The notes under the pieces: generated by a model
Seen by the model: only the letters and a program-made list of their open reading frames with translations
The model's database searches: none
What the model was told of the DNA's origin: nothing
Origin: Spirochaetota bacterium
Lineage (GTDB): Bacteria; Spirochaetota; Spirochaetia; ARS1246
NCBI GenBank assembly: GCA_024275515.1
Contig: JAJRYZ010000244.1
Coordinates: 1,140 to 65,139, forward strand
Direction of reading: 5' to 3'
Length of the DNA stretch: 64,000 nucleotides
Shown: in pieces, positions 7,525 through 26,544 of the stretch
Layout of the letters: each line of letters starts with the position of its first letter
Numbering within the stretch: position 1 is the stretch's first letter
Made by a program: the position numbers and the translations under genes

Positions 7525-7559
7525 GCGGTGCCGGACGGAGCCGTCGTATAGACCTTGCC

Positions 7560-7745: not shown

Positions 7746-9134
7746 CTACAGGTCCCGGTAGATCGGCGCATGGATGTTGATATTGTATGCGAAATCGGCA
7801 TCGATGCTGTACAGATCCGCCTGCTCCAACCGTACCTGAAGTCGTATCCACCGCTTTCGACGCACGATCTCTCCGAGATCCGCGCCGTTTCGCCATCGAA
7901 CGACGGCGTTTATCCTGTCGCCCCGGATCTCGCGGCAATCGTTATAGGTGAAACCGGGGACGGGTCGGTACTCCGGGTCACACACCTGCACCCGGACACC
8001 GCCCAGCGGCGCCTTGACGTTGAGTGAAACGACGGTGGAGCTCAGGAGAAGACACTCGGTAGTAATCTCTCCGCAGCCCCGGGTCGAGGCCAAGCTAACG
8101 AAACCGTTTTTCCGAAGCAGCCCCGGAAGCAGCACGCCGCTCCTCCTCCCTTCGGCCACGACATCATGGATCCGGTGATGCTCCTCCAAACGAGCGACGG
8201 CGTACACGAGAACGTCTTCGTCCCGCTCGATCATCGCCGCGCCGTACATCGACCCCGCTCCGTATTGCCCCGGCTCGCGTCTCGGCATCGCCGGGGCGTG
8301 GGTGCGATTCCACATCAGCCCGTCGTACGAATAGGCGTATTCGGTCAGCACCGGACCGCCCATTACGTCGTTGTACGGCATCAGTTGATTCCATAGAAAC
8401 CCGATGAACACCTCCCCGGCGCGGTAGTAGAATTGAGGCATGCCGTAGAAATGAGTCGACGGCGGGTCGATCGGCGAAGGATGAACAATCGGACGCGGGG
8501 GTGTCCATCGCAACAGGTCGGGACTCTCCACCAGACAGACCCTGCGCTCTCCCCATCTTCTGCGCAGCGTAATTTGATACCGGTCGCTCACCGGATTCCT
8601 GATAAGTGAGTTATAAGTGTCGCTGTGATGCGGAAGGAAGGACCCGGTCCGACTCGATGTCCAGTTGACCCCGTCGGACGATTCGGCAATGCAGGAAGGC
8701 AGCGTCTCCAACCCCTCTTCGGTCCGAGCGATCGGAGAGTTGGTCATTTTGTATCGCTTGGCGGAATCCGTTTCGGACTCGTCATAGTACACGCAGCAGC
8801 CGGCGGGCGCCGGCATCCCGGCCACGAGAACGTTCGTCGTTATTCCGCGAGAATCCGTTCCGACCGGCGCCGGTTTCCAGCGGAGCCCGTCGTCACTCTC
8901 GGCCATACACAGAATCGTCGACATCTCCGTCGCTCTGTCCACACCGGTGAGAGTTATGTAGTAGAGGTAGTATCCTCCGGTAGGCGAAGGGACAACACTT
9001 GCGTATCCCATTCCGTAGAGGGAAACAGGGTCGGAGTAGCAGTGCTCCTCAATCCAGGTGGGCGTATGAACGATACGGCGAATCGATTCCTGACGGTGAA
9101 TGAGAAAATCATCGAAAAAAACAATCGTCTTCAT
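7746..9134 (-). CDS. glycoside-hydrolase-like five-bladed beta-propeller protein with C-terminal beta-sandwich (family not assignable)
   Basis: Blade motifs AESDDGLRW, AESSDGVNW and ESPDLLRW recur as in GH32/43/130-type propellers. The protein-like sequence starts at MKTIVFFDDF (ATG 9134). The track ORF's 142 extra N-terminal codons are Arg-rich and run into the divergent regulator gene. Confidence 0.6.
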   Translation of the reverse strand: MKTIVFFDDFLIHRQESIRRIVHTPTWIEEHCYSDPVSLYGMGYASVVPSPTGGYYLYYITLTGVDRATEMSTILCMAESDDGLRWKPAPVGTDSRGITTNVLVAGMPAPAGCCVYYDESETDSAKRYKMTNSPIARTEEGLETLPSCIAESSDGVNWTSSRTGSFLPHHSDTYNSLIRNPVSDRYQITLRRRWGERRVCLVESPDLLRWTPPRPIVHPSPIDPPSTHFYGMPQFYYRAGEVFIGFLWNQLMPYNDVMGGPVLTEYAYSYDGLMWNRTHAPAMPRREPGQYGAGSMYGAAMIERDEDVLVYAVARLEEHHRIHDVVAEGRRSGVLLPGLLRKNGFVSLASTRGCGEITTECLLLSSTVVSLNVKAPLGGVRVQVCDPEYRPVPGFTYNDCREIRGDRINAVVRWRNGADLGEIVRRKRWIRLQVRLEQADLYSIDADFAYNINIHAPIYRDL

Positions 9135-9260
9135 GACTGATTGTACAATGTCGGACAGCCGGAGTATACGAGAGATTCGGCTGCCGGGGCTTTTGTACGC
9201 ACCTTGAGTCTTTGCGCTTGACATGCGATCTCCGACGAAACGTAATGGAACGGAGGGAGA

Positions 9261-10658
9261 ATGATGTCGATGTTCACGACGCTGCTGGTCGACGACGAAG
9301 AGCGGGCGCTGACGGGTATTCGCCGTACGTTTCCGTGGGCCGACTACGGCTTTACGGTGGTTTTCGCGACGAGCGACCCCGTCGCGGCGCTCGACTACTT
9401 GAGAAAACGCAGAGTAGATCTCGCCTTCGTCGACATTCGCATGCCCGAGCTCTCCGGGCTGGACATCATAAGGATTGCACGAGAAGAGAACCTTGAAACG
9501 GAGTTCGTTATTATCACCGGACATTCGGAGTTTGAGTTCGCGAGATCCGCTCTGCGTCACGGCGTGCTCGACTACTGTTTAAAGCCCCTTCGTTCGGAGG
9601 CCGCAATCGCCGTACTCGAACGAGCGGCGGTTCATTTGCAGCACGTCCGGGAGAGTCGCCTCCGGGAAGAGCGGGCGTATGGGTCGCCGTTTGACCCACG
9701 CACGCTTCGCGAGCGATTTCGCAATCCGCTCCCCGCCTTTTGCGCCGCGGTGTGCATTCGAGATGTGAGAAGCGAGACGGCGGCGGGTCAGCGCATACCC
9801 GAGTTCGTCCCCGGCGCCGAAATCGTTCGGGCGAAGGTGAAAAACGAATGGGTTTACGTCGTCAATTTCCGCGGCGGTGACCCTCGCGAGCTGCTTGTCG
9901 CGAGCGCAGACGCGTGGCGAGTAGGATTCGGCGCCGTGTGTTCGAACGTCGATGAGATTCCGTCGTCAATAGAGGACGCCCGGGAGGCGTTGACCGCCTT
10001 TTTGTTCTATCCCGATGAACGCGTATTCTTGCGGACCCCGGTGAAAGAGGCGGCCGTCGAGCGGATAGCTGCGGATCTGTTCGACGCGCTCGACTCCGGA
10101 ATGATCTTTGTCGTCGAAGAGTTCTTCGACCGCCTCCCTTCGGTAATGACTCACGAGCTGTTGATGCCGTGGGACGCTCGCCTTCTCTACGACAGTGTGG
10201 TGGATCTGCTCGTCGGGAGCGTCGAGAACGGACTCGGCGGGGGCGAGGTGTCGACGCCGACGGCGTTTTGTGAGCAGTTGAGAGCCGTGGTGATGCGAGC
10301 GATCTGTCCGGAAGCGGGGCGGGCCTTCATCGCAGAGGTCGGCGAGCGCATGCGTTCGATGCTCAGGTTCGTCCATCGCCACATCGACTCCCGGATTACT
10401 CTGAAGGAGCTGTCCGCCCGTTTTCACTTCCATCCGAACTACGGGTGTGAATTGTTCAAGCGATACACCGGCCTGACCTTTTCGGAGTATGTGGTTCGAA
10501 TGAAACTCTGGCACGCACGACATTTGCTCATGCACACGGACAAACCTATCGCCGTTGTGGCCGAAGAGGTCGGTTACGATTACTATCACTTCAATAGGCT
10601 ATTTAAGAAAAAGGAAGGAATGACGCCGAAACAATACCGGGAGTCGCGCGCGCGATGA
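9261..10658 (+). CDS. response regulator with AraC-type HTH output (YesN-like)
   Basis: Receiver domain (LLVDDEE..., acceptor context LAFVDIRMP, CLKP) plus C-terminal AraC HTH (HFHPNYGCELFKRYTGLTFSEY..., GYDYYHFNRLFKKKEGMTPKQYR). GGAGGGAGA precedes the ATG. Confidence 0.88.
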   Translation: MMSMFTTLLVDDEERALTGIRRTFPWADYGFTVVFATSDPVAALDYLRKRRVDLAFVDIRMPELSGLDIIRIAREENLETEFVIITGHSEFEFARSALRHGVLDYCLKPLRSEAAIAVLERAAVHLQHVRESRLREERAYGSPFDPRTLRERFRNPLPAFCAAVCIRDVRSETAAGQRIPEFVPGAEIVRAKVKNEWVYVVNFRGGDPRELLVASADAWRVGFGAVCSNVDEIPSSIEDAREALTAFLFYPDERVFLRTPVKEAAVERIAADLFDALDSGMIFVVEEFFDRLPSVMTHELLMPWDARLLYDSVVDLLVGSVENGLGGGEVSTPTAFCEQLRAVVMRAICPEAGRAFIAEVGERMRSMLRFVHRHIDSRITLKELSARFHFHPNYGCELFKRYTGLTFSEYVVRMKLWHARHLLMHTDKPIAVVAEEVGYDYYHFNRLFKKKEGMTPKQYRESRAR

Positions 10659-12421
10659 AGCGTCCGAAAAGGCGTCGCAAGACGTCGTTGCACGCCTACC
10701 TCATCCGCGTGCAGCTATTCGCTCTCGCGTCCGTCGTCATAACTCTTGCGGCATACTTCGTCTATAGCTTTCGGTTCATCGAACGACAGATGCTTCAGGC
10801 GAACGATACGATGCTTTCGGTTGTCAGCGAAGGAATCGTACGAGCCGCCGGGGAGACGACGGCCCTGGCGTTTAATATAGCCTATAATCCGGAAGTTCAG
10901 CGCAGCCTGACCGAGAAAAATGTTCTTGCGCTGATCAAATACAGCAACACTTTTTACACCATCGCGAAGATGACCGTAAAGTCCAGTGAGCTCATTGATG
11001 ATGTGGCGCTCTTCAACCGCGATCTTTCGATTTTCAGAAACGTGTCGAACGATATTACTTACTCGGACTACAAATCCGCGCTGCTCGATCATTTGGCCGC
11101 GGCTCCGTATCGGCAGGGCCGCTTCATCGCCGTTGATCTCGACAACAATGAAAGATATTTATGCTTTGTTCTTCCTGTTCATAGCCGAGCCGCGGATTCG
11201 AAGGCGGATTCGCTCATCGGCTACAGCCTGACGAGTTTCCGAATCGATCGTATCGCCGAGCCGTTCCGCCGTATCTCTTCTCTTGAGAACAGCTACACCG
11301 CCATCATCGATCGGACGGGCGCCGTCATTTCGTTCGCTTCCACGCGACCGGATTCCACTCTCGGTCTCGAAGAGTTGTTTCGCCATCCCGCCCGCTTCGT
11401 GAAAAACGAGCAGGACCTGCCGGGCTTGAAGGGGACGCTGATAAGTTTTATCCCGAAACTCGACATCTACCGACGGCAGGTCGGCTTTCTCGTACTCTCC
11501 CCGTCACTCGTGGGAATACTGCTCGCGGTTTTCTTCCTTATGGGGAACCGGCTCAACCACGCCTTCAGCGTGCCTATCGAACGACTCGTCGCGCAGCTCG
11601 AGTCGTTCGACGGGAGCGATAGGCGGCTTCGCGTCGAGGGAATACCGAAGAACGAGATCGGCTACATCACCGACAGCATCAATTCCATGCTCGACAAAAT
11701 TCACGATATGACCGCGCGGAGCATTTTCGAGCGGCAGCGCATGAGCGATCTCGAACTCCACAGCAAGGACGCCGAGCTGTTGGCGCTGCAATCGCAGATC
11801 AATCCACACTTCATGTACAACACCTTGGAGTGTTTGCGGAGCATCGGGATCGACTACGGCTCGTCGGAAATCGTGCAGATATCGACGGGTCTCGCCGACA
11901 TATTGCGGTACTGTCTGAGTACCGATTTCCAGGTTCCACTGCATCGGGAGCTCGCGATCGTGCGTGAATACTCTCAGATCATTCGACTGCGTTTCGGTGA
12001 CCGTTATTCCTTCGATATCGAGGCGGACGCCGAAGCGCGAAATGCGGTTGTAATCAAGATGATAATTCAGCCGATCGTCGAGAACGCGGTCTTTCACGGG
12101 CTGGAAAAACGTCGGACCGGCCTGCTCAGTGTCAGATGTTCGCGGGTGCGAGACACGATCGTCGCGGTCGTCTACGACAACGGTCAGGGTATGGACCAGG
12201 CGCATCTGGAATCGCTGCGGGAGCAACTTTTGCGTGGACATACCACTCCCGACCACGGCCGATCGGACAGGCGCGGCCTGGGGTTGGTCAACATTCACAG
12301 GCGCATTCAGACCTTTTACGGCGAGAAGTACGGCATCGCAATCGACAGCGAACCCGAATCGGGCACGTCCGTGACGATCGTGTTGCCGGTGCTGGATCGG
12401 GAGACTTCGGTCGGCGGATGA
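10655..12421 (+). CDS. sensor histidine kinase, YesM-type (TM-sensor-TM-HAMP-His_kinase-HATPase)
   Basis: H-box LQSQINPHFMYNTLECL is typical of the YesM/LytS-like kinase family. ATPase motifs VYDNGQGM and GLGLVNIHRRI are present, with two TM segments. ATGA overlap with the regulator. Confidence 0.88.
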   Translation: MKRPKRRRKTSLHAYLIRVQLFALASVVITLAAYFVYSFRFIERQMLQANDTMLSVVSEGIVRAAGETTALAFNIAYNPEVQRSLTEKNVLALIKYSNTFYTIAKMTVKSSELIDDVALFNRDLSIFRNVSNDITYSDYKSALLDHLAAAPYRQGRFIAVDLDNNERYLCFVLPVHSRAADSKADSLIGYSLTSFRIDRIAEPFRRISSLENSYTAIIDRTGAVISFASTRPDSTLGLEELFRHPARFVKNEQDLPGLKGTLISFIPKLDIYRRQVGFLVLSPSLVGILLAVFFLMGNRLNHAFSVPIERLVAQLESFDGSDRRLRVEGIPKNEIGYITDSINSMLDKIHDMTARSIFERQRMSDLELHSKDAELLALQSQINPHFMYNTLECLRSIGIDYGSSEIVQISTGLADILRYCLSTDFQVPLHRELAIVREYSQIIRLRFGDRYSFDIEADAEARNAVVIKMIIQPIVENAVFHGLEKRRTGLLSVRCSRVRDTIVAVVYDNGQGMDQAHLESLREQLLRGHTTPDHGRSDRRGLGLVNIHRRIQTFYGEKYGIAIDSEPESGTSVTIVLPVLDRETSVGG

Positions 12422-14127: not shown

Positions 14128-14952
14128 GTGAAACCCGCGATCTGGACCGGAATGTATGTTGAAGCGCCGCTGCACGAGGCGATTCGAACGCTTCGCAACC
14201 ACGGGTGGCGATCTTTCGAAATATCCACCGAACATCTCGTCGCAATCGAAAACGCCGACGATCCGGTCCGACCGACGGCCGCGGCTCAAGAGGAGCTTGC
14301 CGACGGGGCGGCGCCGCAGGCCCACGGCTATTTGCAGGCGAACGTCGCCGATCCCGACCCCGACAAGCGCGCCGGCGACGTCAATCGACTCAAGCGACAT
14401 ATCGAAATCTGCGCCGCGCTCGGCGTCCGTGTCGTGGTCATTCATCCCGGCGGGCGGCGGTCCGACGAAACACGGGAGGAGCGCGATCTTACCGAACGCC
14501 TCAACGTCGATTCGTTCAATCGGCTTGCCGACCGCGCCGAGTCGCTGGGCGTACGGATTGCGCTTGAGAACCTGATGCGTCGCGGCGCCGCAACGGCGTA
14601 CGAGATGCTTGATCTCGTCGATCGAATCGGGCGGGCGAGTTTGGGCCTCACTCTCGATACCTCTCACGCGCGGGTCATGGGGCTCGACATCGCGAAAATG
14701 ATCGGCGAGATCGGGCCGTTGCTGATTGCCACGCACGTATCGGATAACGACGGCAGCGGTGATCAACATCTGACTCCCGGGAACGGATCGATCGAGTGGG
14801 CGGCCGTCGTCGCGGCCCTGCGCAGAGTGAAGTACGACGGGTTACTCAATTTCGAGATTCCCGGTGAGCGGCACGCGGACGGGGATCTTCGCGCACTCAA
14901 ATCGCGTCACGCGGCTGGCGTGGCCGAATGGATGGTGCGCATCGAGCGTTGA
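14128..14952 (+). CDS. sugar phosphate isomerase/epimerase (xylose-isomerase-like TIM barrel)
   Basis: Motifs VVVIHPG, IALENL, LTLDTSHA and NFEIPG are typical of this TIM-barrel family. The likely start is GTG 14128 or ATG 14152. The track start at 14011 adds a non-protein-like leader. Confidence 0.75.
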   Translation: MKPAIWTGMYVEAPLHEAIRTLRNHGWRSFEISTEHLVAIENADDPVRPTAAAQEELADGAAPQAHGYLQANVADPDPDKRAGDVNRLKRHIEICAALGVRVVVIHPGGRRSDETREERDLTERLNVDSFNRLADRAESLGVRIALENLMRRGAATAYEMLDLVDRIGRASLGLTLDTSHARVMGLDIAKMIGEIGPLLIATHVSDNDGSGDQHLTPGNGSIEWAAVVAALRRVKYDGLLNFEIPGERHADGDLRALKSRHAAGVAEWMVRIER

Positions 14953-14965
14953 AAAACGGAGGGTA

Positions 14966-16336
14966 ATGGTGAGCCGACCCGAACGAATCAATCTCGAAAT
15001 AGTCACGGCGCGAAATACGCGACAGCTCAAAGCCGCCGGCGCCACGATGCCCGGAGGCGTAAACTCTTCGGTGCGCGTTCACGGCGCGCTCGGGGTGCCG
15101 TTCTACGTGTCGCGCAGCGAGGGCGCCACCGTCTATGATCTCGACGGCAACGGATATATCGACATGTGCACCGCGCACGGGGCGGCGCTGCTCGGTCACG
15201 GCCACCCGGCGATCGTCGAAGCGGTTCATCATGCGGCCGAGCTGGGATTCGCCGGAGTTTTCGAGACGCCGTTTCACGAGGAACTGGCCCGAAAGGTCTG
15301 CCGGAAGATCCCTTGCGCCGAAATGATTCGGTTCTGCTCGTCGGGAAGCGAAGCGACGCTGCACATGATTCGGGCGTGTCGGGAGTTCTCGGGAAGAGAC
15401 AAGATCATCAGAGTTGAAGGACACTTCCACGGCTATCACGAAATGATATACATCGGAGGGCACCCGCCGAAAGAATATCTCGATAGAAACGCGACGAGGC
15501 CGTACGTCGAATCGGCCGGAATCCCCGAAACGTTGCGGAACATGATCATCCCCATCCCCTTCAACGATCCCGACGCGCTTGAACGGGCGATCCGAAAGCA
15601 CCGCGGAGACGCGGGGACGCTGATACTGGAGCCGGTAAACTACAACAGCGGGTGCATTACGCCCGATCCCGGGTACCTCGAACTGGCCCGCGCCCTCACC
15701 GAGCGGGAAGGGATGGTGCTTTTCTTCGACGAGATCCAGTCGGCGTTCAAGAAGTCGCCCGGAGGCGCTCAGGAGGATTTCGGCGTCGTTCCCGACGTGG
15801 CGACGATCGGTAAATCACTCGGCGGGGGGCTGCCGCTGTCGGCCTTTTGCGGGCGAAGCGAGATCATGTCGCGGTACAAGCCGCTCGGTCCGGTCCAGCA
15901 CAGCGGCACCTTCAACGCGCACCTCGTGCCGGTCCTTTGTGGGCTCGCGTTTATCGAACAGATAGAGAATCCCGGCTTCTACCGGCGTCTTGCGAGCATC
16001 GAAGCGCGGTTTCATTCAGGGGTCGATCGGATCATTGAAGAGAATGATCTTAACATGATCGTACCGCGCCACGGCGCGAGGTTTGGCGTCGTGCTCGGAC
16101 GGAGGACTCCGCCTCGCAACTATTCGGACGTTCTGGTTCATGACAAGGCGCTTATGATAGAAATCTGGCGCGACTGTCTTGAGCTAGGAGTCTATTTTCA
16201 CGACTACGGAGGTGGTCCCATCCACCACGGGTACTCGATACAGCACACGAACGAAGAGATCGATCGCGTCGTTGAGGTATTCGCCGAGGTATTGCCCCCC
16301 TACCGCGAGCGGATCAACGCGCTCGGCGCCGACTGA
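14966..16336 (+). CDS. class-III (HemL/GSA-like) PLP-dependent aminotransferase
   Basis: MPGGVNSSVR, GHGHPAIVEAV, FDEIQS and the PLP-lysine context ATIGKSLGGGLP are present. ATG 14966 is preceded by GGAGGG. Confidence 0.85.
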   Translation: MVSRPERINLEIVTARNTRQLKAAGATMPGGVNSSVRVHGALGVPFYVSRSEGATVYDLDGNGYIDMCTAHGAALLGHGHPAIVEAVHHAAELGFAGVFETPFHEELARKVCRKIPCAEMIRFCSSGSEATLHMIRACREFSGRDKIIRVEGHFHGYHEMIYIGGHPPKEYLDRNATRPYVESAGIPETLRNMIIPIPFNDPDALERAIRKHRGDAGTLILEPVNYNSGCITPDPGYLELARALTEREGMVLFFDEIQSAFKKSPGGAQEDFGVVPDVATIGKSLGGGLPLSAFCGRSEIMSRYKPLGPVQHSGTFNAHLVPVLCGLAFIEQIENPGFYRRLASIEARFHSGVDRIIEENDLNMIVPRHGARFGVVLGRRTPPRNYSDVLVHDKALMIEIWRDCLELGVYFHDYGGGPIHHGYSIQHTNEEIDRVVEVFAEVLPPYRERINALGAD

Positions 16337-16544
16337 GAAGGGCCGGGTATTCACCGCCTGCGCCGACGACACGGCGGGTCGCAAGACGAGAATCGGGGAA
16401 CACATGGTCGGTAATCGCAAGCGCATCGAGGGAAAGCGACCGGACGAGATAGACCTGGTCGGCGACGCTGTGGTAACCGTCCGACCACACGGTATGCACC
16501 TGCAGGTCGTGACGCGGGTAACGGTTGTGCACGGTAAGAATCAT
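16314..16544 (-). pseudogene. PHP-domain phosphoesterase remnant (N-terminal ~47 aa only)
   Basis: From ATG 16544 the translation is MILTVHNRYPRHDLQVHTVWSDGYHSVADQVYLVRSLSLDALAITDH, the first PHP motif block. The rest of the domain is absent. The frame runs into the aminotransferase 3' end. Confidence 0.45.
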
Positions 16545-16708
16545 ATCAGATACTTTGCCGCCCCGCTCGCCGGAAATTGCACGGTCCCCTGATTTCGGCC
16601 TACAATGGAGCATTACCCGTACCGTCGGAAGAACCGGGGCCGCCCGAGCGTCCCACGCTGCCCGACGGCGTGCGGGTCGATTCGAAGCGGTCCGATAGGG
16701 AGCATACT

Positions 16709-19462
16709 GTGGCGAAAAAGCGAGAGGGAATCGAACACGCGAAGCGCGTGGTCGGCAACTCCCGCGCGACCCGCGAGGAGCTACGCGACGAGCTGAGAAA
16801 GCTCATCGACGCCTACGAACGGCGACTCGATCGTTCGCGACGGGAATCATCATCCGGACATGGGCAACCGCGAGCGATACGGAAAATCAAAGTCGCGAAC
16901 GGCGTCTACTGGGTCGAAATTCCCGAGGCCGACCTTCGGATCCTCTGCGGCTGTCCGGCCGACGTGGTGAAGCTGTTGATCAAGCGGGGACTTATTATCA
17001 ACGCCGAAAGAGGTGGGGTCACTTTCGAAACGGGTCCGAACGCGATTCTCCTCTCCGACGTCATGATCCAGAACGGCCAGATTGCAAACCTCGCCGAGTT
17101 TCCGGTGCTGCAGATGCTCTATCGGCAGGGGATGCTTCTGCCGAATCACCCCAACAATACCGGAGCGAAACCCATTCTTATCGGGCTCGAGGAGGTCCTC
17201 CGTGCGCAGAGCCGCTATATCTATCGGGGGAACTACGGCCTGATTTCGGAGAAGGAGATCGAAGGCGCGGGAGTGGACCGCCGGCGAGCGGCCGAAATGA
17301 TGCGGCTGAAGCGGCGGTTCGCCTTCGACTCGATCCGAACCACCGAAGAGCTTATCGACTTGCGGATCGTCGATCGCGACGTGGTTCCGTTGTTCGAGAA
17401 TGTGTTTCTTCATCGCTTTGGAGTAAACCGCTACGAAATCATATGGAAGGGACAACACGTCGAAATCGATCTGAATCTGACTCCACAGGAGGAATACGAG
17501 TCTTCCTACCGGCTGGGCGATCACCGAATCGACAAAGAGTACTTTTCGGTGGTCCATATCGGAGAAGGCGACGGGTGGGACGTGAACCGTCCCTGCATGG
17601 CGAGCCTGTTGACCTATCAAGATCGGTTCTATTTGATCGACGCCGGTCCGAAGGTCATGAACAGTCTCATGGCGCTCGGAATAAGCATCAACGAGATAGA
17701 CGGTATTTTTCACACTCACGCTCACGACGACCACTTCGCCGGTCTCGCGGCTCTGCTCCGATCCGATCATCGCCTCACGTACTACACCACGCCGCTCGTA
17801 CGGACTTCGGTCACGAAGAAACTGTCGGCCCTCATGTCGATCGACGAGTCGAGTTTCGACAAATACTTCGACGTGCGCGACCTGGCGGCTGAGAAGTGGA
17901 ACGATATCGACGGTCTGGAGGTGATGCCGGTCTATTCGCCTCACCCCGTGGAGACGAACATCTTTCGGTTCAGGGTCCGTTGGCGCGACGGCTATCGATC
18001 GTACGCCCATCTCGCCGATATCGCGAGTTGTTCGGTGTTGATGAATATGGTCACCGACGATCCCGAACGCAGCGGGCTCGACCATGAGTCGTTCGAACGT
18101 ACGCGGTCGTCGTACCTAATCCCTGCGGATCTGAAGAAGATAGACATCGGCGGCGGGTTGATCCACGGCGACGCCGAAGACTTCGAGAACGATCGTTCGG
18201 CAAAGATCCTGCTGGCCCACGTGGAGCGTCCACTCACCGAGGCGCAGCGTGAAATCGGATCAAACGCGTCGTTCGGCACACAGGACGTACTCATCCCGTC
18301 GGTTCGCGACACGATTGTCGACGAGGCGTTCGAGTACCTGCACTCCTACTATGCGCAAGCGCCCGCCCACGAACTGGCCGCGCTGACCAACTATCCAATT
18401 CAGGAGTTCAACGCGGGAACGATCATGATCCGCAAGGGGGATAAGTGCGATTCGGTCTATTTGGTCATTCGCGGAGTGGTGGAGGCGCTCGATGTAAAAT
18501 CCGGGCTGTCGGTGCGGATGACCGCCGGTTCGCTCGTCGGAGAAACTGCGGGCCTCGAAGGAGACATGAGCGCGATGACCTACCGCACGTCGAGCTACGT
18601 CAAAGCGCTTCGGATTCCCCTGCGCCATTTCGCCGATTTTATTCGCCGAAACGACTTGTACGAGTCGATGCTTAGCGTCCACGAACGGATCGAGTTTCTC
18701 CGATCAAACCGATTGTTCGACGAGGCGGTCTCGTACCAGACGCTCTACGCGATCGCTCAGACGATGGTGAAGGTCGACCTCGACGCGGGCGCCGTCATCG
18801 CCGAGGAGGTTGCCGGTTGCATCTTTCTCATTACCGCCTGGTCGGTGCGCTTGTACGCGGACGACCGCGAGTTCGAGTTGCTCGGCGAGGGTGACGTGTG
18901 CGGCGAGGCGTGCATGCTTATGGGCGATTCGAAGGTCATTTCGGCGGTGACCGCGTCCAAAACATCCGGGTTCACGATTCCGGCCGATTCAATCGAGAGC
19001 ATTCCGATTGTCCGATGGAAGCTGCTCGAGCTGTTCAATCGACGCATTCGGAAGCTGACCACGTTCGTCGGGCTGGTGTGGCACGACGAATACCGTCTCG
19101 ACAACGGCGTAATCGACGAACAGCATCGGGGGCTCTTCGAAACGGTGAAAAGCGTGTACGCGGAGGCCGAACGCGGCGCCGTTTCCGAAAAGATTCGACC
19201 GGTCCTAGATCTTTTGCGGGAGCGGATAAAGCACCATTTCATCACCGAGGAGGAAGCGCTCCAATCGATCGGCTATCCGGAGCTCGACTCGCACCGAGCG
19301 GCGCACGAGGAGGCGTTCGATCGCCTCGCGCGTTTTGTCGAGAGGATCGGGAATGAAAGCGATCGGGTCGAGGTTCAACAGCTCGCGTTCCTGAAGAACT
19401 GGTTGGTGCAGCATATGTTGATAGAAGACGCCGGATTCCGCGCGTTCGTTCAGCAGCAGTGA
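16709..19462 (+). CDS. multidomain signalling protein: unassigned N-terminal region, MBL-fold hydrolase core, two cNMP-binding modules, C-terminal hemerythrin
   Basis: MBL motif FHTHAHDDHFAGL. cNMP module 1 has GSLVGETAGL...YRTSS. Module 2 is degenerate. Hemerythrin ligand blocks IDEQH / HHFITEE / SHRAAH / QHMLIED are present. GTG 16709 is preceded by AGGGAG. The track ORF begins at TTG 16577. Confidence 0.8.
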   Translation: MAKKREGIEHAKRVVGNSRATREELRDELRKLIDAYERRLDRSRRESSSGHGQPRAIRKIKVANGVYWVEIPEADLRILCGCPADVVKLLIKRGLIINAERGGVTFETGPNAILLSDVMIQNGQIANLAEFPVLQMLYRQGMLLPNHPNNTGAKPILIGLEEVLRAQSRYIYRGNYGLISEKEIEGAGVDRRRAAEMMRLKRRFAFDSIRTTEELIDLRIVDRDVVPLFENVFLHRFGVNRYEIIWKGQHVEIDLNLTPQEEYESSYRLGDHRIDKEYFSVVHIGEGDGWDVNRPCMASLLTYQDRFYLIDAGPKVMNSLMALGISINEIDGIFHTHAHDDHFAGLAALLRSDHRLTYYTTPLVRTSVTKKLSALMSIDESSFDKYFDVRDLAAEKWNDIDGLEVMPVYSPHPVETNIFRFRVRWRDGYRSYAHLADIASCSVLMNMVTDDPERSGLDHESFERTRSSYLIPADLKKIDIGGGLIHGDAEDFENDRSAKILLAHVERPLTEAQREIGSNASFGTQDVLIPSVRDTIVDEAFEYLHSYYAQAPAHELAALTNYPIQEFNAGTIMIRKGDKCDSVYLVIRGVVEALDVKSGLSVRMTAGSLVGETAGLEGDMSAMTYRTSSYVKALRIPLRHFADFIRRNDLYESMLSVHERIEFLRSNRLFDEAVSYQTLYAIAQTMVKVDLDAGAVIAEEVAGCIFLITAWSVRLYADDREFELLGEGDVCGEACMLMGDSKVISAVTASKTSGFTIPADSIESIPIVRWKLLELFNRRIRKLTTFVGLVWHDEYRLDNGVIDEQHRGLFETVKSVYAEAERGAVSEKIRPVLDLLRERIKHHFITEEEALQSIGYPELDSHRAAHEEAFDRLARFVERIGNESDRVEVQQLAFLKNWLVQHMLIEDAGFRAFVQQQ

Positions 19463-19470
19463 GGAAAACA

Positions 19471-20646
19471 ATGGGAAGAAAGCTCCACATTACGGGCATC
19501 GAAGTTACCCAGTTCACGTGGGTACTTGAAGCGATCGCGAAGGACGATTACTACAACGGTTTCAACCTCGTCTACACACCCGGAGAACGGCAGGAAATGT
19601 CGGGCCATATCCTTCAGGTGCGGACGTCTGCCGGAATTACCGGCACGTTCATCGGCGGGTCGAAAGGCGACTATGCGCAAATGGAGATGTATGCCGAGTA
19701 TCTGGTCGGACGGAATCCACTCGAACGTGAGTTGATCCATAACGATCTGAAACGCGCGCTCAGAAAACTCGATCGGACGAGCGTCGGTCTCGTCGATATC
19801 GCTCTGTGGGACATCGCGGGAAGGCTCTACGACGCTCCGATTTGGGAACTCCTCGGCGGCTACCGTGAACGCATTCCGGCCTACGCTTCCACTTATCACG
19901 GCGATGAGAACGGAGGCCTCGGTTCGCCGGAGGAGTTTGCCGACTTCGCCGTTACCTGCCGCGACATGGGATACCGGGCGTTCAAGATTCACGGGTGGAG
20001 CCACGCGCCAATAGCCCGCGAAGTCCGAAACGTTCTCGCCGTCCGCGAGGCCGTCGGCAAAGAAATGGACTTGATGCTCGACCCGGCCTGCGAATACGAA
20101 ACCTTCGCCGACGCTCTGCGGGTCGGCCGGGCGTGCGACGAGGCTCGGTATTTCTGGTACGAGGATCCGTTCAAAGATTCGGGCCTGTCTCATTTCGCGC
20201 AGAAACGGCTGCGGGAAATGATCGACACGCCGATCCTAATGGGGGAGCATATCCGGAGTCTCGAGCCCAAAGTCGACATGATTGTGGCGGGAGCGACCGA
20301 CTACGTGCGGGTGAATCCCACCCTCGATATGGGGATAACCGGCGCGATGAAGGTGGCGCATGCCGCCGAGGGATTCGGTCTGGATGTGGAATTCCACGCT
20401 CCGGGACCGGCGCAGCGGCACTGTCTGGCTGCGGTCCGTAACGCCAATTACTACGAACTCGGACTGGTCCATCCGAAGGCGCCCGAGTCGGCGCCGCCGG
20501 TGTATACCGACTACTCCGACGCGCTTGACGCGATCGACGCCGACGGTTCGGTGCCCGTTCCCGACGGACCCGGTTTGGGTGTGGAAATAGATTGGGACTA
20601 CGTGAGAGCGCATCAGACCGGTAGTCGAATTCTCGCGGGACGATAG
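19471..20646 (+). CDS. enolase-superfamily enzyme (mandelate racemase/muconate lactonizing family, acid-sugar dehydratase-like)
   Basis: Capping domain plus barrel, with metal-ligand contexts MDLMLDPAC, FWYEDPF and MGEH. ATG 19471 follows GAGGA. Confidence 0.85.
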   Translation: MGRKLHITGIEVTQFTWVLEAIAKDDYYNGFNLVYTPGERQEMSGHILQVRTSAGITGTFIGGSKGDYAQMEMYAEYLVGRNPLERELIHNDLKRALRKLDRTSVGLVDIALWDIAGRLYDAPIWELLGGYRERIPAYASTYHGDENGGLGSPEEFADFAVTCRDMGYRAFKIHGWSHAPIAREVRNVLAVREAVGKEMDLMLDPACEYETFADALRVGRACDEARYFWYEDPFKDSGLSHFAQKRLREMIDTPILMGEHIRSLEPKVDMIVAGATDYVRVNPTLDMGITGAMKVAHAAEGFGLDVEFHAPGPAQRHCLAAVRNANYYELGLVHPKAPESAPPVYTDYSDALDAIDADGSVPVPDGPGLGVEIDWDYVRAHQTGSRILAGR

Positions 20647-20699
20647 GCCGAATATCGATGCGCTCGACATCTACGACATAGTCGTTATCGAGTACAGGC

Positions 20700-22823
20700 T
20701 CACCTCACTCCGGCGGCCGAGGGGTCGATCGGAACGAAACCGATCTCGAAGGCCGGCGAGTCCGCAGCGAGCGTGAAGTCCCGTGCGTAGACGTCGGCGA
20801 ACTTGGGGTCGGCGAACACCGAGTGGCGGTCGTTGCCGACCGCTTGCCATCCGGCAAGATCCATCGTTGTCTCCGAATCGCGCTCGATGCATTTCACCGG
20901 GTTCCCCGACACGTCCCAGATGAGATTCAGATCGCTCGTGTGATTCGGCCTGTCGAGACTTCCCCGGTATCCGACCCGGAACAGCGCCTCGCCGTTGGAG
21001 ACGAGGATATTGCGTTCGAATCTGATCGAGCAATGCTCGTATTCGGCCCTTCCGTGCGAGAGCACCGCCGAATCGGCGAACGCGAAGATATTGTTCCGCA
21101 CGATGTTGTCCCTGCCGTAGTGCTGGTTGAATACCGCGTCGTTGGTGTCGTGGCACAGGTTGCCTTCGATCACCATGTGGCTCGATCCTTCATCCGGGTA
21201 GATGCACCACCCGCCGTAGTGCGCCTTGGTTATGTCGTGTATATGGTTTCCCCGGATCGTCGTCCCCGGCTGCACACCCAGCGTGTAAATGCCGCCCATG
21301 TCCGAAAGCAACCCCTGTCCGATTCGATGGATGTGGTTGTAGTCGATTCTGTTGTCCCGCGATACGCTCTCCATGTATCCCCACACCCATCCGGCCGAAA
21401 CGCCGGTATAGTAGTAGTCCCAGATATGGTTGTGCGAGATTTCGTTGTTGAACGCGTGCATAACGAGTATCCCGACCGCCGAATGAAACACGCGGCCGCC
21501 CGCGGAAATCTCGTTATCGGTAAACGCATGGTCGCCGGTCCTTCTGTGCACGGGGTCATAGGCCGACGCTCCGTTTGCCCTGATTCCGCCGGCGCCCGTT
21601 TGACGAATCGTGCACCGCGTAATCGCGATCGCACGCGACGCGTCGGCAATCTCGAATCCGTACCATCCGACGTTTTGCACCGTACATCCGGTGAAGCGGC
21701 AGTGTCGCGCGGCTTCCATGAACACCACCCCCGGAACGTCCGCCGCCGCCTGATTGCACGCGGCTCTGTTTCCTCTGCGGTTCCGTCGCGATTCGAACGC
21801 GGTCGGGTCTCCCGACGGGCCGACGAAGACTGCGCCGTCGGAGGCGTCGGGATGTCTCCAGTCGGTGTGCTGAAAGGTCAGGTTCTCGAATTGCAGGAAC
21901 TCGACGAACCGGTTCTCGTCCGGGCTACCCTGCAGTACGAGGAGTTGGAGCGCCCGCGGCGCCGTGATTTCGACCGCGCCGAGTTCTTCTCCCGGATGCG
22001 GAATGTAGTACACGGTTCCCGTATCGCGATCGAGATACCACTCTCCCGGCTCGGAAAACGCCTCGGAGACGTTGTCGAGATAGTAGTCGGCGAGACCCTC
22101 TCCGTGCGCCGCGAAGAGCGGCGCCGTGCTCGGCCGCGCCATAACGACTTCGCGGGTCTTCTCGTCGTAGGAGACGATTCCGGAGCGCTCCTCGATCCAG
22201 AAATGAACGTAAACGACCTCGATGTCTTCGAGATTGTCGAACGGCCGAAGATCGCCCGGCCGTGCGATGAACTTCGTGTAGTCTCTCCCCGTGTGCCAAC
22301 TCCCCCTGGAGGGAAGCCCCGGAACCGACTCCATGCGAAACAGCCCGTGCTTGGGGAACCTCGGCCGGGTTCGCCGCTCTCCGTTAACGAACAATTCTCG
22401 AAAACTCCAGCCCTTGTCGCGCGCGTCGGGGACATCGGCCGCCCAGCACTCTCTCCCCCGATAGCTCGCCGCGTGCCAGCCGGTGATTTCGATCGACCCG
22501 TCGATGACGGGTTTTTCTCCGGGGTAGGCGCGGTAGCGGACGGGCGCCGAGTCGCGGTCGTCGAAACGGATGGGCCCGGAAACGCGGTAGACCCCGCCGC
22601 GAATCCAGACGTTTATCGGTCCCCGAAGCGCCGCCGAAAGGCGCGACGCCTGCTTGCTGAAAACGAAGCTCTTCCTGCGACGTATCTCATCGCGCGCTCC
22701 CTCGATGGTCGCGAAGGGGCCGTCCGTGCCTTCCGCGTTCGGTTCGGGCAGCCTTCCCGACCATTCGTCGCCGCCGGCGGACGACACGAAAAGGTCTTCC
22801 GGCCCAAACTCTTCGTACTTCAT
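20700..22823 (-). CDS. right-handed parallel beta-helix repeat protein (putative glycan lyase/hydrolase), paralogue 1, no signal peptide
   Basis: Repetitive N-x-I/V-x-x-N turns are present, with conserved blocks YYTGVSAGWVWGY, LSDMGGIYTLGVQPGT, GGWCIYPDEGSS and NIVRNNIFAF shared with 24392-26452. The N-terminus is MKYEEFGPEDLF. Confidence 0.8.
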   Translation of the reverse strand: MKYEEFGPEDLFVSSAGGDEWSGRLPEPNAEGTDGPFATIEGARDEIRRRKSFVFSKQASRLSAALRGPINVWIRGGVYRVSGPIRFDDRDSAPVRYRAYPGEKPVIDGSIEITGWHAASYRGRECWAADVPDARDKGWSFRELFVNGERRTRPRFPKHGLFRMESVPGLPSRGSWHTGRDYTKFIARPGDLRPFDNLEDIEVVYVHFWIEERSGIVSYDEKTREVVMARPSTAPLFAAHGEGLADYYLDNVSEAFSEPGEWYLDRDTGTVYYIPHPGEELGAVEITAPRALQLLVLQGSPDENRFVEFLQFENLTFQHTDWRHPDASDGAVFVGPSGDPTAFESRRNRRGNRAACNQAAADVPGVVFMEAARHCRFTGCTVQNVGWYGFEIADASRAIAITRCTIRQTGAGGIRANGASAYDPVHRRTGDHAFTDNEISAGGRVFHSAVGILVMHAFNNEISHNHIWDYYYTGVSAGWVWGYMESVSRDNRIDYNHIHRIGQGLLSDMGGIYTLGVQPGTTIRGNHIHDITKAHYGGWCIYPDEGSSHMVIEGNLCHDTNDAVFNQHYGRDNIVRNNIFAFADSAVLSHGRAEYEHCSIRFERNILVSNGEALFRVGYRGSLDRPNHTSDLNLIWDVSGNPVKCIERDSETTMDLAGWQAVGNDRHSVFADPKFADVYARDFTLAADSPAFEIGFVPIDPSAAGVR

Positions 22824-22862
22824 ACGCGTGCTCCTCGATGGCGAAATGTGCGTCCGATCGTC

Positions 22863-24395
22863 CTACAGATAACTTTTGGTCCGTATTTCATCGAACCGAT
22901 CGGGGTTCACCTTAAGATCGTAGTTATACGTATTGTGATACCGCGTTATCCGTTGCGGCCCGACGGTCTCCGGTAGCCCGAGCACCGTCGCCGGGCGCGT
23001 CGTCGCGACGATTCTGTCGAGCAACCGTGCGCGAAGCTCGTTTACGAGTCCGTCGTTCCTTCCGTCGAGCGCGAGATTATTCATCTCCCACGGATCGGCC
23101 TCCAGGTCGTAGAGTTCGCAGAATCCGTCCGGGTAGTCGTCGGCGAACATCCGCTTCGGATAGAAGACGAAACGGTACTTATCCCAGCGAAGACTTCGGC
23201 TCCAGGCGAACTCGGTCAATCCGACGCGATCCGGATCGCCCGGATTGCCTTCGAGCATCGCCGAGATGTCGACGCCGTCGGAGGTCTCCATGAGAGGCAA
23301 TCCGGTAAGCGCGCATATCGTTTGGGAAAAATCGATGCTTTCGACGACCTCCCGGGCAACGTGTCCTTCCGCGAACCGACCCGGCCATCTCCAAATCGCC
23401 GGGACCCGGGTGATCGCGTCGGAACAGATTCCCGGCGCCTTTTCCATAATGCCGTGTTCGCACGCGTAGTCCCCGTGGTCGCTCGAATAGACGACGATCG
23501 TATTCTCCGCGAGGTCTTCCTCTTCGAGGAAGTCGAGAAGCTCGCCCACCGCGTGATCTACATGAGTGACGTTTCCGAGATACCCGTGCAGCTTTCGCAG
23601 TCGTCCGGCTTCGAAGGTCTTTGGTTCGAATAGCTGCCACTCGCTGCTCCGCCAGTGCTCCGCGGTCCGTTGCAGGTGCGGCGCCTTTCCCACCATGTCG
23701 TAATCCGAGTTGGGCGGAAGCGTCAGTTTCGACTCATCGTACAGGTCCCAGAACCGCTCGGCCGGCGTATAGCACTGGTGCGGTTTCGGAAGACTCACGT
23801 GCAGAAAGAAAGGACGGGACTCGCTCATCGCTTCGCGCATGAACCGCATCCCACGCCGGACGATCCATCCTTCCTGTCCGTCCTCGTAGGAAACCTTGCT
23901 GGGTCGTCCCTCGACGGTTTGACCTCCCCGTTTGCCGAACTCCTGCATCGCCCCGTGGTCCTCGAGGTCGGTGAGTCCGCGGTCGGCGAGATACTCGGCG
24001 TATTCCGCGCACCGTCCGCCTATGCTCGTTCCGCAGGTCTCCCGAAAAAGATCGACCGAGTCCTCGACCCAATACTCCGGACAGTGAATTTTTCCTATCG
24101 CTCCGGTCAGGTAACCGCCGCGGCCGAAATGATCGAAGATAGTCGGCAGTCCGCGAGGATTCGCCCCGCTTAGCCCGTAGTACCCGTGATTATGACAGTA
24201 CTGTCCCGAAAGCCAACTCATCCGGCTCGGCGTGCAAATCGGATTCTGCGTAATCGCGTTGTCGAATCTCACCCCCTCCGAGGCGAGTCGGTCGAGGTTC
24301 GGCGTCCGCACGTCGGGATGATTCTTGTGTCCGACGACTTTGGCGTTGTGCTGATCGGAGAGGATGTGCAGTACGTTGATTGCTCGTGAGCTCAT
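22863..24395 (-). CDS. Cys-type sulfatase (formylglycine-dependent), no signal peptide
   Basis: Signature CTPSRMSWLSGQY, preceded by NVLHILSDQH. ATG 24395 is preceded by AGGAGG. The track ORF's 59 extra codons are Arg-rich. ATGA overlap with the upstream gene's stop. Confidence 0.9.
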   Translation of the reverse strand: MSSRAINVLHILSDQHNAKVVGHKNHPDVRTPNLDRLASEGVRFDNAITQNPICTPSRMSWLSGQYCHNHGYYGLSGANPRGLPTIFDHFGRGGYLTGAIGKIHCPEYWVEDSVDLFRETCGTSIGGRCAEYAEYLADRGLTDLEDHGAMQEFGKRGGQTVEGRPSKVSYEDGQEGWIVRRGMRFMREAMSESRPFFLHVSLPKPHQCYTPAERFWDLYDESKLTLPPNSDYDMVGKAPHLQRTAEHWRSSEWQLFEPKTFEAGRLRKLHGYLGNVTHVDHAVGELLDFLEEEDLAENTIVVYSSDHGDYACEHGIMEKAPGICSDAITRVPAIWRWPGRFAEGHVAREVVESIDFSQTICALTGLPLMETSDGVDISAMLEGNPGDPDRVGLTEFAWSRSLRWDKYRFVFYPKRMFADDYPDGFCELYDLEADPWEMNNLALDGRNDGLVNELRARLLDRIVATTRPATVLGLPETVGPQRITRYHNTYNYDLKVNPDRFDEIRTKSYL

Positions 24396-26452
24396 AATAC
24401 CTCCTTTTTGCTTCCGGTCGGAACGCGCGGGCCGGCATTCGAAAGGTCGAACGGAACGAAACCGAGGGCTATTGCCGGGGAGTCGCCGGCAATCGTAAAA
24501 TCGCGGCCGGAAAGGTCGCGACATTTCGGGTCGGCGACAATGCTCCCGGCGTCCTGACCGCTCCTTTGCCACTCCTCGAAGCTCATTCCGTCGAACTCAA
24601 CCGACCCGCCCGACGTGTGAAAATAGCAATTGCGCAGAAACAGCGCAGTTTCGGGAGTCCACGGCTTCCCGCGAGCGCCCGCCTTAAGCAGCGCGCCCTC
24701 GGAATAAATCACGATGTTTTGTTCGAAGAGGAACGATCGATGACTTTCGGCCCGTCCGCGTTCTATCTGCGCCTCGACGCCGAAGGCGAAGATGTTGTTG
24801 CGAACGATGTTTTCCAGCCCGAAGTGCTGATGAAACGGCGCGCACTTGGTGTCGTAGCAACAGTTGTATTCGATCAGCAGCCGACTCGAGCCCTCGTCCG
24901 GATAGATCGCCCAGCCGCCGTAGGTCCGCGACCGAATGTCATGGATCAGGTTGTACCTGAGCCGGGTTCCCGGCTGCATGCCCAGCGTATAGATGCCGCC
25001 CATGTCGGAGAGCTTTCCCTTTCCGAGATGATGGATGTGATTCCATTCGACGACGTTCCCGCCGGCACGATTCTCCTCGTATCCCCAGTTCCAACCGATC
25101 GAAACTCCCGTGTAGTAGAAGTCGTGGATATCGTTGTGGAGGACGATATTCGACGGCGCGTCGCCGATAAGCACGCCGGCGGCCGGCGGAAAGAGATGTC
25201 CGCCGTCGCCGATATCGCAGTCGGATACGACGTTTCGCCCGCACCCGTGCCAGATCTTGATACCGCCGGCGCCGAGGTCGCGCAAAGTGCACCCGACTAT
25301 GCGAACGTCGGTGCAGTCGTCCTCCAACGCGATCGCGTAGGTTCCGACGTGCTCGACGGTGCATCCTTCGATCGAAACGTAATGCGCCTGCTTCATCGAG
25401 ACCGCCCCGGGAACGATCGGGGCCGACTGGCGGATCGCCGCAACGTCCTGCGGCGTTTGCCACTCGACGTGGCTAAACACGAGGTTTCTCAATGTGAGTA
25501 TCGGATGCGTGTTCAACTGCTTCGATTCGACGCCGCGTTCGAGCCGACCGCCGCGAATCTCAATGAGAGTCTCAAGATACGGCGCCACCACTTCGACCGC
25601 CCCGATCGTTTCTCCGGGCATCGGCACGTAGTAGAGCAGTCCGTCGGTCCTGTCCAGGTACCACTCGCCGGGCGAATCGAGCGCCTCGAAAACGTTCTCG
25701 ACGTTGTAGGCCGCTCCGGTTCGACCGAAATCGTAGGAAAGTCGCATACCGGAGTTCCGGTCGATGTAAACGATACGTTCGGCCGGATCGACCCGATCGA
25801 CCCGGGCCCGCATCGAACGCCACAGGGAAAGGATAACGATTTCAACATCCTTCAGGTTGCGCCACTTCGGGTCGATGTCGCCCATTGCGTATCCGAAGCG
25901 ATCGGTCCCTTTCCCGACCGTTTGCGACCAGGCGCCCTCCCACTCGGCGTCGTAGAGCGTCTCGATAAGGTATTCGCCCGACTTCGGAAGTATCGGGCGA
26001 AAGCGTCGCTCGCCGTTTACCCAGATTTGGGAAAAGCTCCATCCTCCCGATCGCACTCCGGGAACCTCGGCGACCCAAGCGTTCACGCCGTTGACCGTGG
26101 TCTCCCGAAACCCGTCGATTCTCCGTCCGCCGCTCAAGACCGCGCGTTCACGCGGATAGGATTCGTAGACGACCGGATGTACCGGCTCGACCGTCGTGTG
26201 CCAGTCGAACTTCTCGGGAGCGCCGAAGTCAGCCTCGGCCAGATGAAGGGTCCCGTCGAGAGAGTAGGTCCCTTCCCGAAGCACGATTCGGATCGTCTTG
26301 GGTTCGTTCGTTTTTCGTCGGATCGATCGAGCGACGCGCTGCGCCGCCTTGATCGTTCGAAGAGGTCCATCGCCGGCGGAGTTGTCGGCGGTTCGCCCGG
26401 TATTGCCGTCGTCGCCTCGTGGCGAGACGTAGATGATCGCTTCGTCGCTCAT
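24392..26452 (-). CDS. right-handed parallel beta-helix repeat protein, paralogue 2, no signal peptide
   Basis: N-terminal IYVSPRGDDGNTG...GPLRTIKAAQ motif, typical of beta-helix enzymes. Blocks YYTGVSIGWNWGY, LSDMGGIYTLGMQPGT, GGWAIYPDEGSS and NIVRNNIFAF are collinear with paralogue 1. Confidence 0.8.
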   Translation of the reverse strand: MSDEAIIYVSPRGDDGNTGRTADNSAGDGPLRTIKAAQRVARSIRRKTNEPKTIRIVLREGTYSLDGTLHLAEADFGAPEKFDWHTTVEPVHPVVYESYPRERAVLSGGRRIDGFRETTVNGVNAWVAEVPGVRSGGWSFSQIWVNGERRFRPILPKSGEYLIETLYDAEWEGAWSQTVGKGTDRFGYAMGDIDPKWRNLKDVEIVILSLWRSMRARVDRVDPAERIVYIDRNSGMRLSYDFGRTGAAYNVENVFEALDSPGEWYLDRTDGLLYYVPMPGETIGAVEVVAPYLETLIEIRGGRLERGVESKQLNTHPILTLRNLVFSHVEWQTPQDVAAIRQSAPIVPGAVSMKQAHYVSIEGCTVEHVGTYAIALEDDCTDVRIVGCTLRDLGAGGIKIWHGCGRNVVSDCDIGDGGHLFPPAAGVLIGDAPSNIVLHNDIHDFYYTGVSIGWNWGYEENRAGGNVVEWNHIHHLGKGKLSDMGGIYTLGMQPGTRLRYNLIHDIRSRTYGGWAIYPDEGSSRLLIEYNCCYDTKCAPFHQHFGLENIVRNNIFAFGVEAQIERGRAESHRSFLFEQNIVIYSEGALLKAGARGKPWTPETALFLRNCYFHTSGGSVEFDGMSFEEWQRSGQDAGSIVADPKCRDLSGRDFTIAGDSPAIALGFVPFDLSNAGPRVPTGSKKEVL

Positions 26453-26544
26453 AGCGTCTCCATCGTTCTACGGGATGGTAGACAAATTATATCGGAATAT
26501 GGAAGAAGGCGCCAGACCGTTCGGAGTCGGTCGCACCGACTCGA

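Follow-up and report, generated by a model that had tools for sequence, protein, structure and literature searches.

A 64,000-nucleotide stretch of a Spirochaetota bacterium genome (positions 1,140 to 65,139 of the forward strand of contig JAJRYZ010000244.1, assembly GCA_024275515.1; hereafter, the window) encodes at 16709..19462 (+) a multidomain protein in which an N-terminal region without a Pfam assignment is followed by a metallo-β-lactamase (MBL) domain, two cyclic-nucleotide-binding (CNB) domains and a C-terminal bacteriohemerythrin. This protein is a member of a widespread, unstudied bacterial family and no one-off fusion, and the best explanation of its composition is a soluble cytoplasmic signalling enzyme. 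We propose, with confidence somewhat above even and by analogy with characterised enzymes, that it is a cyclic mononucleotide (cNMP)-activated cNMP phosphodiesterase whose hemerythrin adjusts its activity to O2 or redox state. As such, it is best described as a variant of the cNMP-stimulated MBL phosphodiesterases, with hemerythrin coupling and a putative pseudo-MBL half as the new parts. Bacterial turnover of cyclic AMP (cAMP) and cyclic GMP (cGMP) is far less mapped than that of cyclic di-GMP (c-di-GMP), and the hemerythrin-coupled enzymes in the literature searched all belong to c-di-GMP signalling or chemotaxis. If the proposal is true, the protein would be a phosphodiesterase through which oxygen or redox state acts directly on cyclic-mononucleotide levels.

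An intact gene in a widespread family

Coordinates are positions in the window, and residue numbers refer to the 917-residue product that starts at GTG 16709. The open reading frame (ORF) at 16577..19462 (+) is free of interruptions and contains 961 codons counted from its first TTG (TTG 16577), in agreement with the original prediction, made from the sequence alone, of a single uninterrupted ORF of 917-961 residues depending on the start. Homologues align with the protein end to end (45-69% identity, E = 0), and because they do so over its whole length, the frameshift that had been named as a way in which the ORF could be split is excluded. The base composition of the gene equals that of its flanks, and the ORF is a genuine, intact and well-formed gene. 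Direct reading of the sequence confirmed the proposed GTG start with a Shine-Dalgarno-like AGGGAG (16697..16702, +) and a spacer of 6 nt. The closest homologue with the same N-terminal leader, P0002, begins in the alignment at the residue equivalent to GTG 16709, and the 917-residue coding sequence (16709..19462, +, ending in TGA) is preferred because of this match. The database gene call (P0001) instead comprises 961 residues from TTG 16577. Its additional 44 codons (16577-16708) specify a Pro-rich extension common to none of the aligned homologues; the TTG start is therefore likely mis-called, and, on this comparison, P0001 is probably 44 codons too long. We note that a 411-residue shadow ORF lies antisense within the gene (16850-18085) and is likely an artefact of the ~58-61% G+C content.

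Domain scans of the 917-residue protein, applied with Pfam gathering and NCBIfam curated cut-offs, recovered above the Pfam cut-offs each of the three domain types that the original prediction had read from motifs. Lactamase_B (38.9 bits, cut-off 22.7) and Lactamase_B_2 (39.1 bits, cut-off 27) match residues 294-441, and the MBL motif FHTHAHDDHFAGL begins at nt 17708, where the prediction had placed it. The cNMP_binding model (PF00027; 62.7 bits, cut-off 27.5) matches two stretches, the better at residues 565-648. Hemerythrin (PF01814; 45.9 bits, cut-off 25.3) matches residues 801-909, and the bacteriohemerythrin models NF033749 (90.2 bits, cut-off 84) and TIGR02481 (94.5 bits, cut-off 51.75) are also exceeded. 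The full-length AlphaFold2 (AF2) model is compact, with a predicted local distance difference test (pLDDT) score of 89 and a predicted template-modelling (TM) score of 0.85. All on the forward strand, the gene encodes in order a charged helical leader delimited by alignment and AF2 helices (residues 1-54; 16709..16870), a conserved N-domain delimited by AF2 and Foldseek (residues 55-262; 16871..17494), the catalytic MBL domain, supported by Pfam, NCBIfam, profile search and fold matches (residues 276-535; 17534..18313), the first CNB domain, CNB-A, which contains the better Pfam stretch (residues 548-666; 18350..18706), the second, CNB-B, which corresponds to the other stretch (residues 667-765; 18707..19003), a connecting segment with an AF2 helix at 766-784 (residues 766-788; 19004..19072) and the bacteriohemerythrin four-helix bundle, on which NCBIfam, Pfam and AF2 helices agree (residues 789-916; 19073..19456). 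Each of the five modules named in the original prediction thus lies at its predicted place.

The original prediction presented the protein as a singular giant fusion, a view that did not survive the homologue search, which returned over 3,000 proteins. With one genome scanned per species, a relative is encoded in at least 593 species-level genomes, mainly from Spirochaetota, Desulfobacterota, Magnetospirillum and other Rhodospirillales, Magnetococcales, Gallionellaceae, Campylobacterota, Nitrospinota, an anammox planctomycete and SAR324. The carrier taxa are mostly microaerophiles, anaerobes and organisms of gradients or low oxygen, and they include the genetically tractable Magnetospirillum, which makes the proposed activity directly testable. 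The 120 matches listed are all near full-length; 112 share all Pfam domain types of the query, Hemerythrin included, and the other 8 have no Hemerythrin match. The only names given to these homologues, where they have one, are 'bacteriohemerythrin', 'hemerythrin' or 'hemerythrin domain-containing protein', or 'cyclic nucleotide-binding' protein. No paper on the architecture or the family was found in the literature searched. The earlier remark that the five-part architecture is not recognised as characterised needs correcting for its core, as the layout of an MBL domain and two CNB domains is characterised in GbpA and GbpB of Dictyostelium.

The N-domain and the MBL domain (N+MBL) recur together under a variety of regulatory domains. 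Four architectures were distinguished: N+MBL alone (~475-483 residues), N+MBL with two CNB domains (~730 residues, the most diverse class), N+MBL with two CNB domains and a hemerythrin (~865 residues), and N+MBL preceded by an N-terminal REC, GAF, CHASE2 or SBP_bac_3 (periplasmic) sensor. Variants are exemplified by P0122, P0131, P0171, P0141, P0143, P0230 and P0152, which carry REC, GAF, CHASE2, SBP_bac_3 or a third CNB domain with a C-terminal extension of ~300 residues, or consist of N+MBL alone (~480 residues). In the architectures examined, the N-domain always precedes an MBL domain, apparent fragments excepted. Such interchangeable sensors on an N+MBL unit are typical of a signalling output module.

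The catalytic domain and the N-domain

Membership of the catalytic domain (residues 276-535) in the MBL superfamily follows from scores above the Pfam thresholds together with an HxHxDH motif and downstream His, Asp and His ligands. The key residues are D311, H337-x-H339-x-D341-H342, H412, H434, D437, H486 and H504. The metal ligands H337, H339, D341, H342, H412, D437 and H486 are all present, and at least 191 of the 192 family members over which residue conservation was counted keep the MBL ligands. A profile of the domain built from 16 diverse family members and searched against the PDB matched Apyc1 best (E = 7.5e-10 over 130 residues, spanning motifs 1-3), followed, a short local arylsulfatase match aside, by ELAC1 (8.5e-8) and RNase Z (2e-6). 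Among MBL folds, the full-length model came closest to YhfI (TM 0.71) and PhnP-family diesterases (TM 0.64-0.68), and no β-CASP domain or exosite arm was detected by fold comparison in this compact domain of ~260 residues. The original prediction had offered either a phosphodiesterase or a nuclease, within a general reading as an MBL hydrolase gated by O2 or redox state and by cNMP, and this general reading is the one with the best support. With Apyc1 as the best profile match, the fold of YhfI and PhnP, and no β-CASP domain or exosite arm detected, the phosphodiesterase option is now stronger on both profile and model comparisons.

Apyc1 and YhfI are homodimeric class II MBL phosphodiesterases in which HxHxDH binds two Zn ions, and both cleave cyclic mononucleotides, with YhfI preferring cAMP and cGMP (Hobbs et al. 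2022; PMC9117128). The protein studied here shares their HxHxDH motif, which in Apyc1 and YhfI serves to bind two metals in enzymes that hydrolyse cNMPs (PMC9117128), and Apyc1 is both its closest solved catalytic-domain relative by profile and its best N-domain fold match. In contrast to these single-domain homodimers of ~250 residues, which have no regulatory domains, it has a putative degenerate MBL-like domain fused in cis.

The ~300 N-terminal residues left unassigned in the original prediction divide into two unequal parts. The leader (residues 1-54), modelled by AF2 as helices at 2-16 and 22-49 with pLDDT 54-81, is present among 27 aligned members only in the query, P0002, P0005 and P0017, and the region is covered in 12 of 191 family members; on this alignment evidence, it is clade-specific. 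The N-domain (residues 55-262) is modelled with a pLDDT of 92.8. Foldseek had been suggested for the N-terminal residues, and when run with the N-domain model against the PDB it gave consistent matches to MBL proteins only. The best was Apyc1 (7u2r; E = 5.4e-4, TM 0.45), and all high-probability matches have the MBL fold, mostly in phosphodiesterases or nucleases (Apyc1, PNGM-1, a PhnP-family diesterase, ELAC2 (8z1g), PqqB, RNase J and RNase Z), with non-MBL folds reaching probabilities of 0.1 at most. A Pfam scan of 25 aligned N-domain members gave scattered chance-level matches only, and a BFVD fold search on the N-domain was uninformative.

The N-domain lacks HxHxDH but is as conserved as its catalytic neighbour. 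Compared with the query, the N-domain has a median identity of 58% and the MBL domain one of 59%, versus 25-34% for both CNB domains and the hemerythrin, and across the 192 members C80, K88, N127, E130, Q140, H147 and G174 are near-invariant. When 1.84 billion representative proteins were searched exhaustively, the N-domain turned up in just 256 clusters. Because its high-probability fold matches are all to MBL proteins, the HxHxDH motif is missing and conservation equals that of the catalytic domain, residues 55-262 are probably a strongly diverged pseudo-MBL domain, forming one half of a tandem catalytic core. Judged by the order of secondary-structure elements, LRILC-GCPAD-helix would parallel FYLID-AGP-helix (MBL motif 1) and AILLSD would parallel GIFHTHAHDDH (MBL motif 2). 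This N-domain, probably a pseudo-MBL, is absent from Pfam and makes up, together with the catalytic MBL domain, a conserved output module taking many sensors.

Regulatory domains, proposed mechanism and alternatives

CNB-A is of the CAP/PKA type by profile match and by its complete phosphate-binding cassette, comprising G611, E612, R626 and T627 within GETAGL (611-616) and YRTS (625-628). The Gly-Glu and Arg-Thr-Ser residues attributed to this module in the original prediction are thus in place, and 150 of 192 members keep R626. CNB-B retains G732, E733 and a CNB-like fold but has V747 where the cassette Arg is expected, so the second module does lack this residue, as had been read from the sequence. 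Across the family, column 747 is most commonly R (85/192), with K in a further 21/192, and the loss of Arg in CNB-B is, by this count, particular to the clade of the query. In a fold search, the tandem CNB domains superpose on CNB-A/B of PKG and PKA-R (E = 2e-13). All seven di-iron ligands of the predicted bacteriohemerythrin (H806, H843, E847, H862, H866, H902 and D907) are present, on AF2 helices at 800-821, 826-853, 859-882 and 889-906. Because the hemerythrin is missing in about a quarter of the sampled relatives (~49/192), we regard it as an add-on regulator.

Two sets of characterised proteins provide precedents. The Dictyostelium discoideum proteins GbpA/PdeD and GbpB/PdeE, the only characterised proteins with an MBL domain and two CNB domains, place two cNMP-binding domains after an MBL catalytic domain (PMC11988041), the order found here. 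Binding of cNMP to these domains activates hydrolysis of cGMP (GbpA) or of cAMP and cGMP (GbpB), and the proteins are cytosolic (PMC11988041; PMC4758236). These 'class IIb' enzymes differ from the present protein in being eukaryotic and in having no described hemerythrin. The second set fuses bacteriohemerythrin to a signalling output, as in Vibrio cholerae Bhr-DGC, Ferrovum Bhr-HD-GYP and the DcrH chemoreceptor. In Bhr-DGC, a diguanylate cyclase, and in the Bhr-HD-GYP phosphodiesterase, the redox or O2 state of the hemerythrin di-iron site controls activity (PMC8846402). The outputs of these proteins concern c-di-GMP or chemotaxis, and the hemerythrin of Bhr-HD-GYP is N-terminal, whereas the present protein has a predicted cAMP/cGMP-type MBL phosphodiesterase output with the hemerythrin at the C terminus, after two CNB domains. 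A cNMP-activated phosphodiesterase set by O2 or redox state is proposed because it combines the Dictyostelium layout with hemerythrin-controlled second-messenger enzymes.

In the proposed mechanism, the catalytic core would be a tandem of the degenerate MBL-like domain (residues 55-262) and the active binuclear MBL phosphodiesterase domain (residues 276-535). The degenerate half probably replaces the partner subunit of homodimeric enzymes such as Apyc1, YhfI and RNase Z, giving an in-cis pseudo-dimer whose geometry we infer to be comparable to that of the two halves of long-form RNase Z. The likeliest substrate would be a 3',5'-cyclic mononucleotide, cAMP and/or cGMP. The CNB pair, arranged as in PKA-R and PKG with a canonical CNB-A and a degenerate CNB-B, is the probable allosteric switch, such that rising cNMP would activate its own hydrolysis, as in GbpA and GbpB. 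The C-terminal bacteriohemerythrin, joined by a long helix, would be a second input, the diferrous as opposed to the diferric or O2-bound state of its di-iron site presumably raising or lowering activity. In bacteria living where oxic and anoxic zones meet, levels of cNMP would thereby be tied to oxygen or redox state. The unusual Dictyostelium enzymes may have a prokaryotic counterpart in this family.

A more far-reaching version, which we consider doubtful, makes the N-domain a functional third site in a three-input enzyme (cNMP, O2/redox and the N-site), perhaps with bacterial ancestry for the amoebozoan class IIb phosphodiesterases and an oxygen-cAMP/cGMP link in microaerophilic and magnetotactic bacteria. 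A degenerate MBL pocket appears to be lined by the near-invariant C80, C82, D85, K88, D117, Q121, N127, E130, Q140 and H147, and these residues look equivalent in position to MBL motifs 1 and 2 as far as secondary-structure order suggests. Candidate ligands of the pocket are a metal, a thiol-redox signal and a second nucleotide or an RNA, and an enzyme with three such inputs would be of a kind not yet described.

Several results weigh against the simpler proposal of a cNMP-activated, O2/redox-modulated cNMP phosphodiesterase. The protein scores below the cut-offs of the Apyc1 Pfam family PF23023 (21.5 bits versus 50), NF041851 (19.6 versus 400) and the RNase Z model TIGR02651 (43.5 bits versus 292.95). 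The class II signature HxHLDH[LIVM]x[GS], in the form quoted in the original prediction, is unmatched: HAHDDHFAG has D for L at position 4 and, at position 7, F, which lies outside [LIVM], so that the match is partial, as had been stated. Residues 55-262, in keeping with their earlier unassigned status, have no Pfam or PDB sequence match, even as a profile; their fold matches are modest (TM 0.35-0.50); and hhalign of the N-domain profile against the catalytic MBL profile gave a probability of 0.4%, with no sequence similarity. The likeness to GbpA and GbpB is in shared domain types, taken from published descriptions. No biochemical data for any family member were found in the literature searched. 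A Pfam scan of ~40 ORFs detected no cyclase in the 64-kb window, and no neighbour is conserved across 80 related loci, in which ORFs were called, the antisense shadow ORF was excluded and the remainder were clustered by all-against-all BLAST. Since the window is without a cyclase and no neighbour is conserved in the 80 loci, genomic context lends no support. We also note that Dictyostelium sequences were not among the 120 matches listed in either homologue search, and that a search with the remote member P0257 listed the bacterial family only. An internal duplication detectable by sequence was rejected on the hhalign result and the empty PDB-profile search.

Because the catalytic profile reaches Apyc1 while the family-model scores fall below cut-off, the protein is related to, and not a member of, the class II/MBL cNMP phosphodiesterase families. 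Its score below the cut-off of every cNMP-phosphodiesterase family model, the unmatched class II signature and the presence among its best fold matches of PhnP-family enzymes, whose substrate is a cyclic ribose phosphate, would also fit an enzyme with the same regulation acting on another small-molecule diester, such as a 2',3'-cNMP, c-di-GMP, c-di-AMP, cyclic GMP-AMP (cGAMP) or, as for PhnP, a cyclic sugar phosphate, the CNB domains then sensing cAMP or cGMP as a separate cross-talk input. We hold this to be unlikely, as the best sequence-profile relative, Apyc1, is a cyclic-mononucleotide phosphodiesterase, and the only characterised proteins with an MBL domain and two CNB domains hydrolyse the nucleotide that they bind.

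More improbable still is a cNMP- and O2-gated ribonuclease or other nuclease resembling ELAC2, in which the N-domain would be an RNA-binding exosite and cNMP would license RNA cleavage. RNase Z, ELAC1 and ELAC2 are among the proteins matched by sequence or fold, the N-domain has no catalytic motifs yet is very strongly conserved, and a degenerate N-terminal and an active C-terminal MBL half in one chain is the layout of long-form RNase Z (ELAC2), whose structure 8z1g is among the N-domain fold matches. However, ELAC2 is a tRNA 3'-end processing enzyme with an exosite arm, whereas the catalytic domain here is compact and, with no β-CASP domain or exosite arm detected, most resembles small-molecule diesterases in fold. 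The protein also falls far below the RNase Z models, and its N-domain has no detectable sequence relation to the N-halves of ELAC2. A Pycsar-like anti-phage effector, whose toxic hydrolase would be switched on when a cyclic nucleotide from a defence cyclase binds the CNB domains, is scarcely credible: the CNB-A region gives weak cross-matches to PADLOC Pycsar effector and cyclase models (E = 6e-8 to 1e-3), but these matches cover the generic CNB domain only, there is neither a cyclase in the window nor a conserved neighbour across the 80 loci, the family spans many phyla as a stand-alone gene amid ordinary metabolic genes, and it carries an O2-sensor domain and swaps of housekeeping-type sensors (REC, GAF and CHASE2).

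Genomic surroundings

The commonest neighbour clusters across the 80 loci are PAS histidine kinases (15/80), ABC ATPases (14/80) and response regulators or HD-GYP proteins (12/80). As these clusters are generic and their positions inconsistent, gene neighbourhood was rejected as functional evidence. A scan of 16200-20800 found no terminator and no promoter-like site on the strand of the gene, and no tRNA genes are present in the window. An MR_MLE (enolase-superfamily) gene at 19472-20646, with a probable start at ATG 19472 and a GAGGA ribosome-binding site, begins 9 nt past the stop codon with no terminator between. The closest relative, P0002, has this gene order on its contig too, but P0005, the next examined, does not. 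In the P0002 contig (JGI sample 3300072015), genes for a HAMP-SpoIIE phosphatase and a DUF6272/SiaC protein (3328-5798) lie directly upstream of the 66%-identical homologue; together they constitute a SiaABC-like partner-switching module, which is not present in the window. Directly upstream of the studied gene, the window instead has a class III aminotransferase gene (14864-16336). Aminotransferases of this class also occur ~0.3-7 kb from the homologue in 7 of the 80 loci, all unrelated (L008, L029, L033, L038, L043, L052 and L062) and mostly on the opposite strand, an association judged to be chance or local synteny.

The surroundings (1-9560, 20700-28947 and 28886-44973) resemble a large polysaccharide-utilisation region. 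They include a sulfatase gene (22863-24572, -) and genes for two GH141-like β-helix proteins (20700-22823 and 24392-26452, -), along with ABC sugar-transporter permeases, solute-binding proteins, GFO/IDH/MocA oxidoreductases, type I phosphodiesterase/sulfatase-fold proteins and AraC regulators. A 717-residue shadow ORF opposite a GH141-like gene (20823-22976) has no Pfam match and, like that within the studied gene, is likely an artefact of the G+C content. Three URO-D (uroporphyrinogen decarboxylase-like) paralogues lie amid sugar-catabolic genes (1448-2512, 35964-36989 and 55635-56693), and a URO-D-like gene is also found directly downstream of the homologue P0005. At 9261-12421, a gene for an AraC-type response regulator (REC and HTH_AraC) overlaps one for a Cache-domain sensor with His_kinase and HATPase domains, forming a YesN/YesM-like two-component pair upstream of PdxA-like, TIM-barrel and aminotransferase genes.

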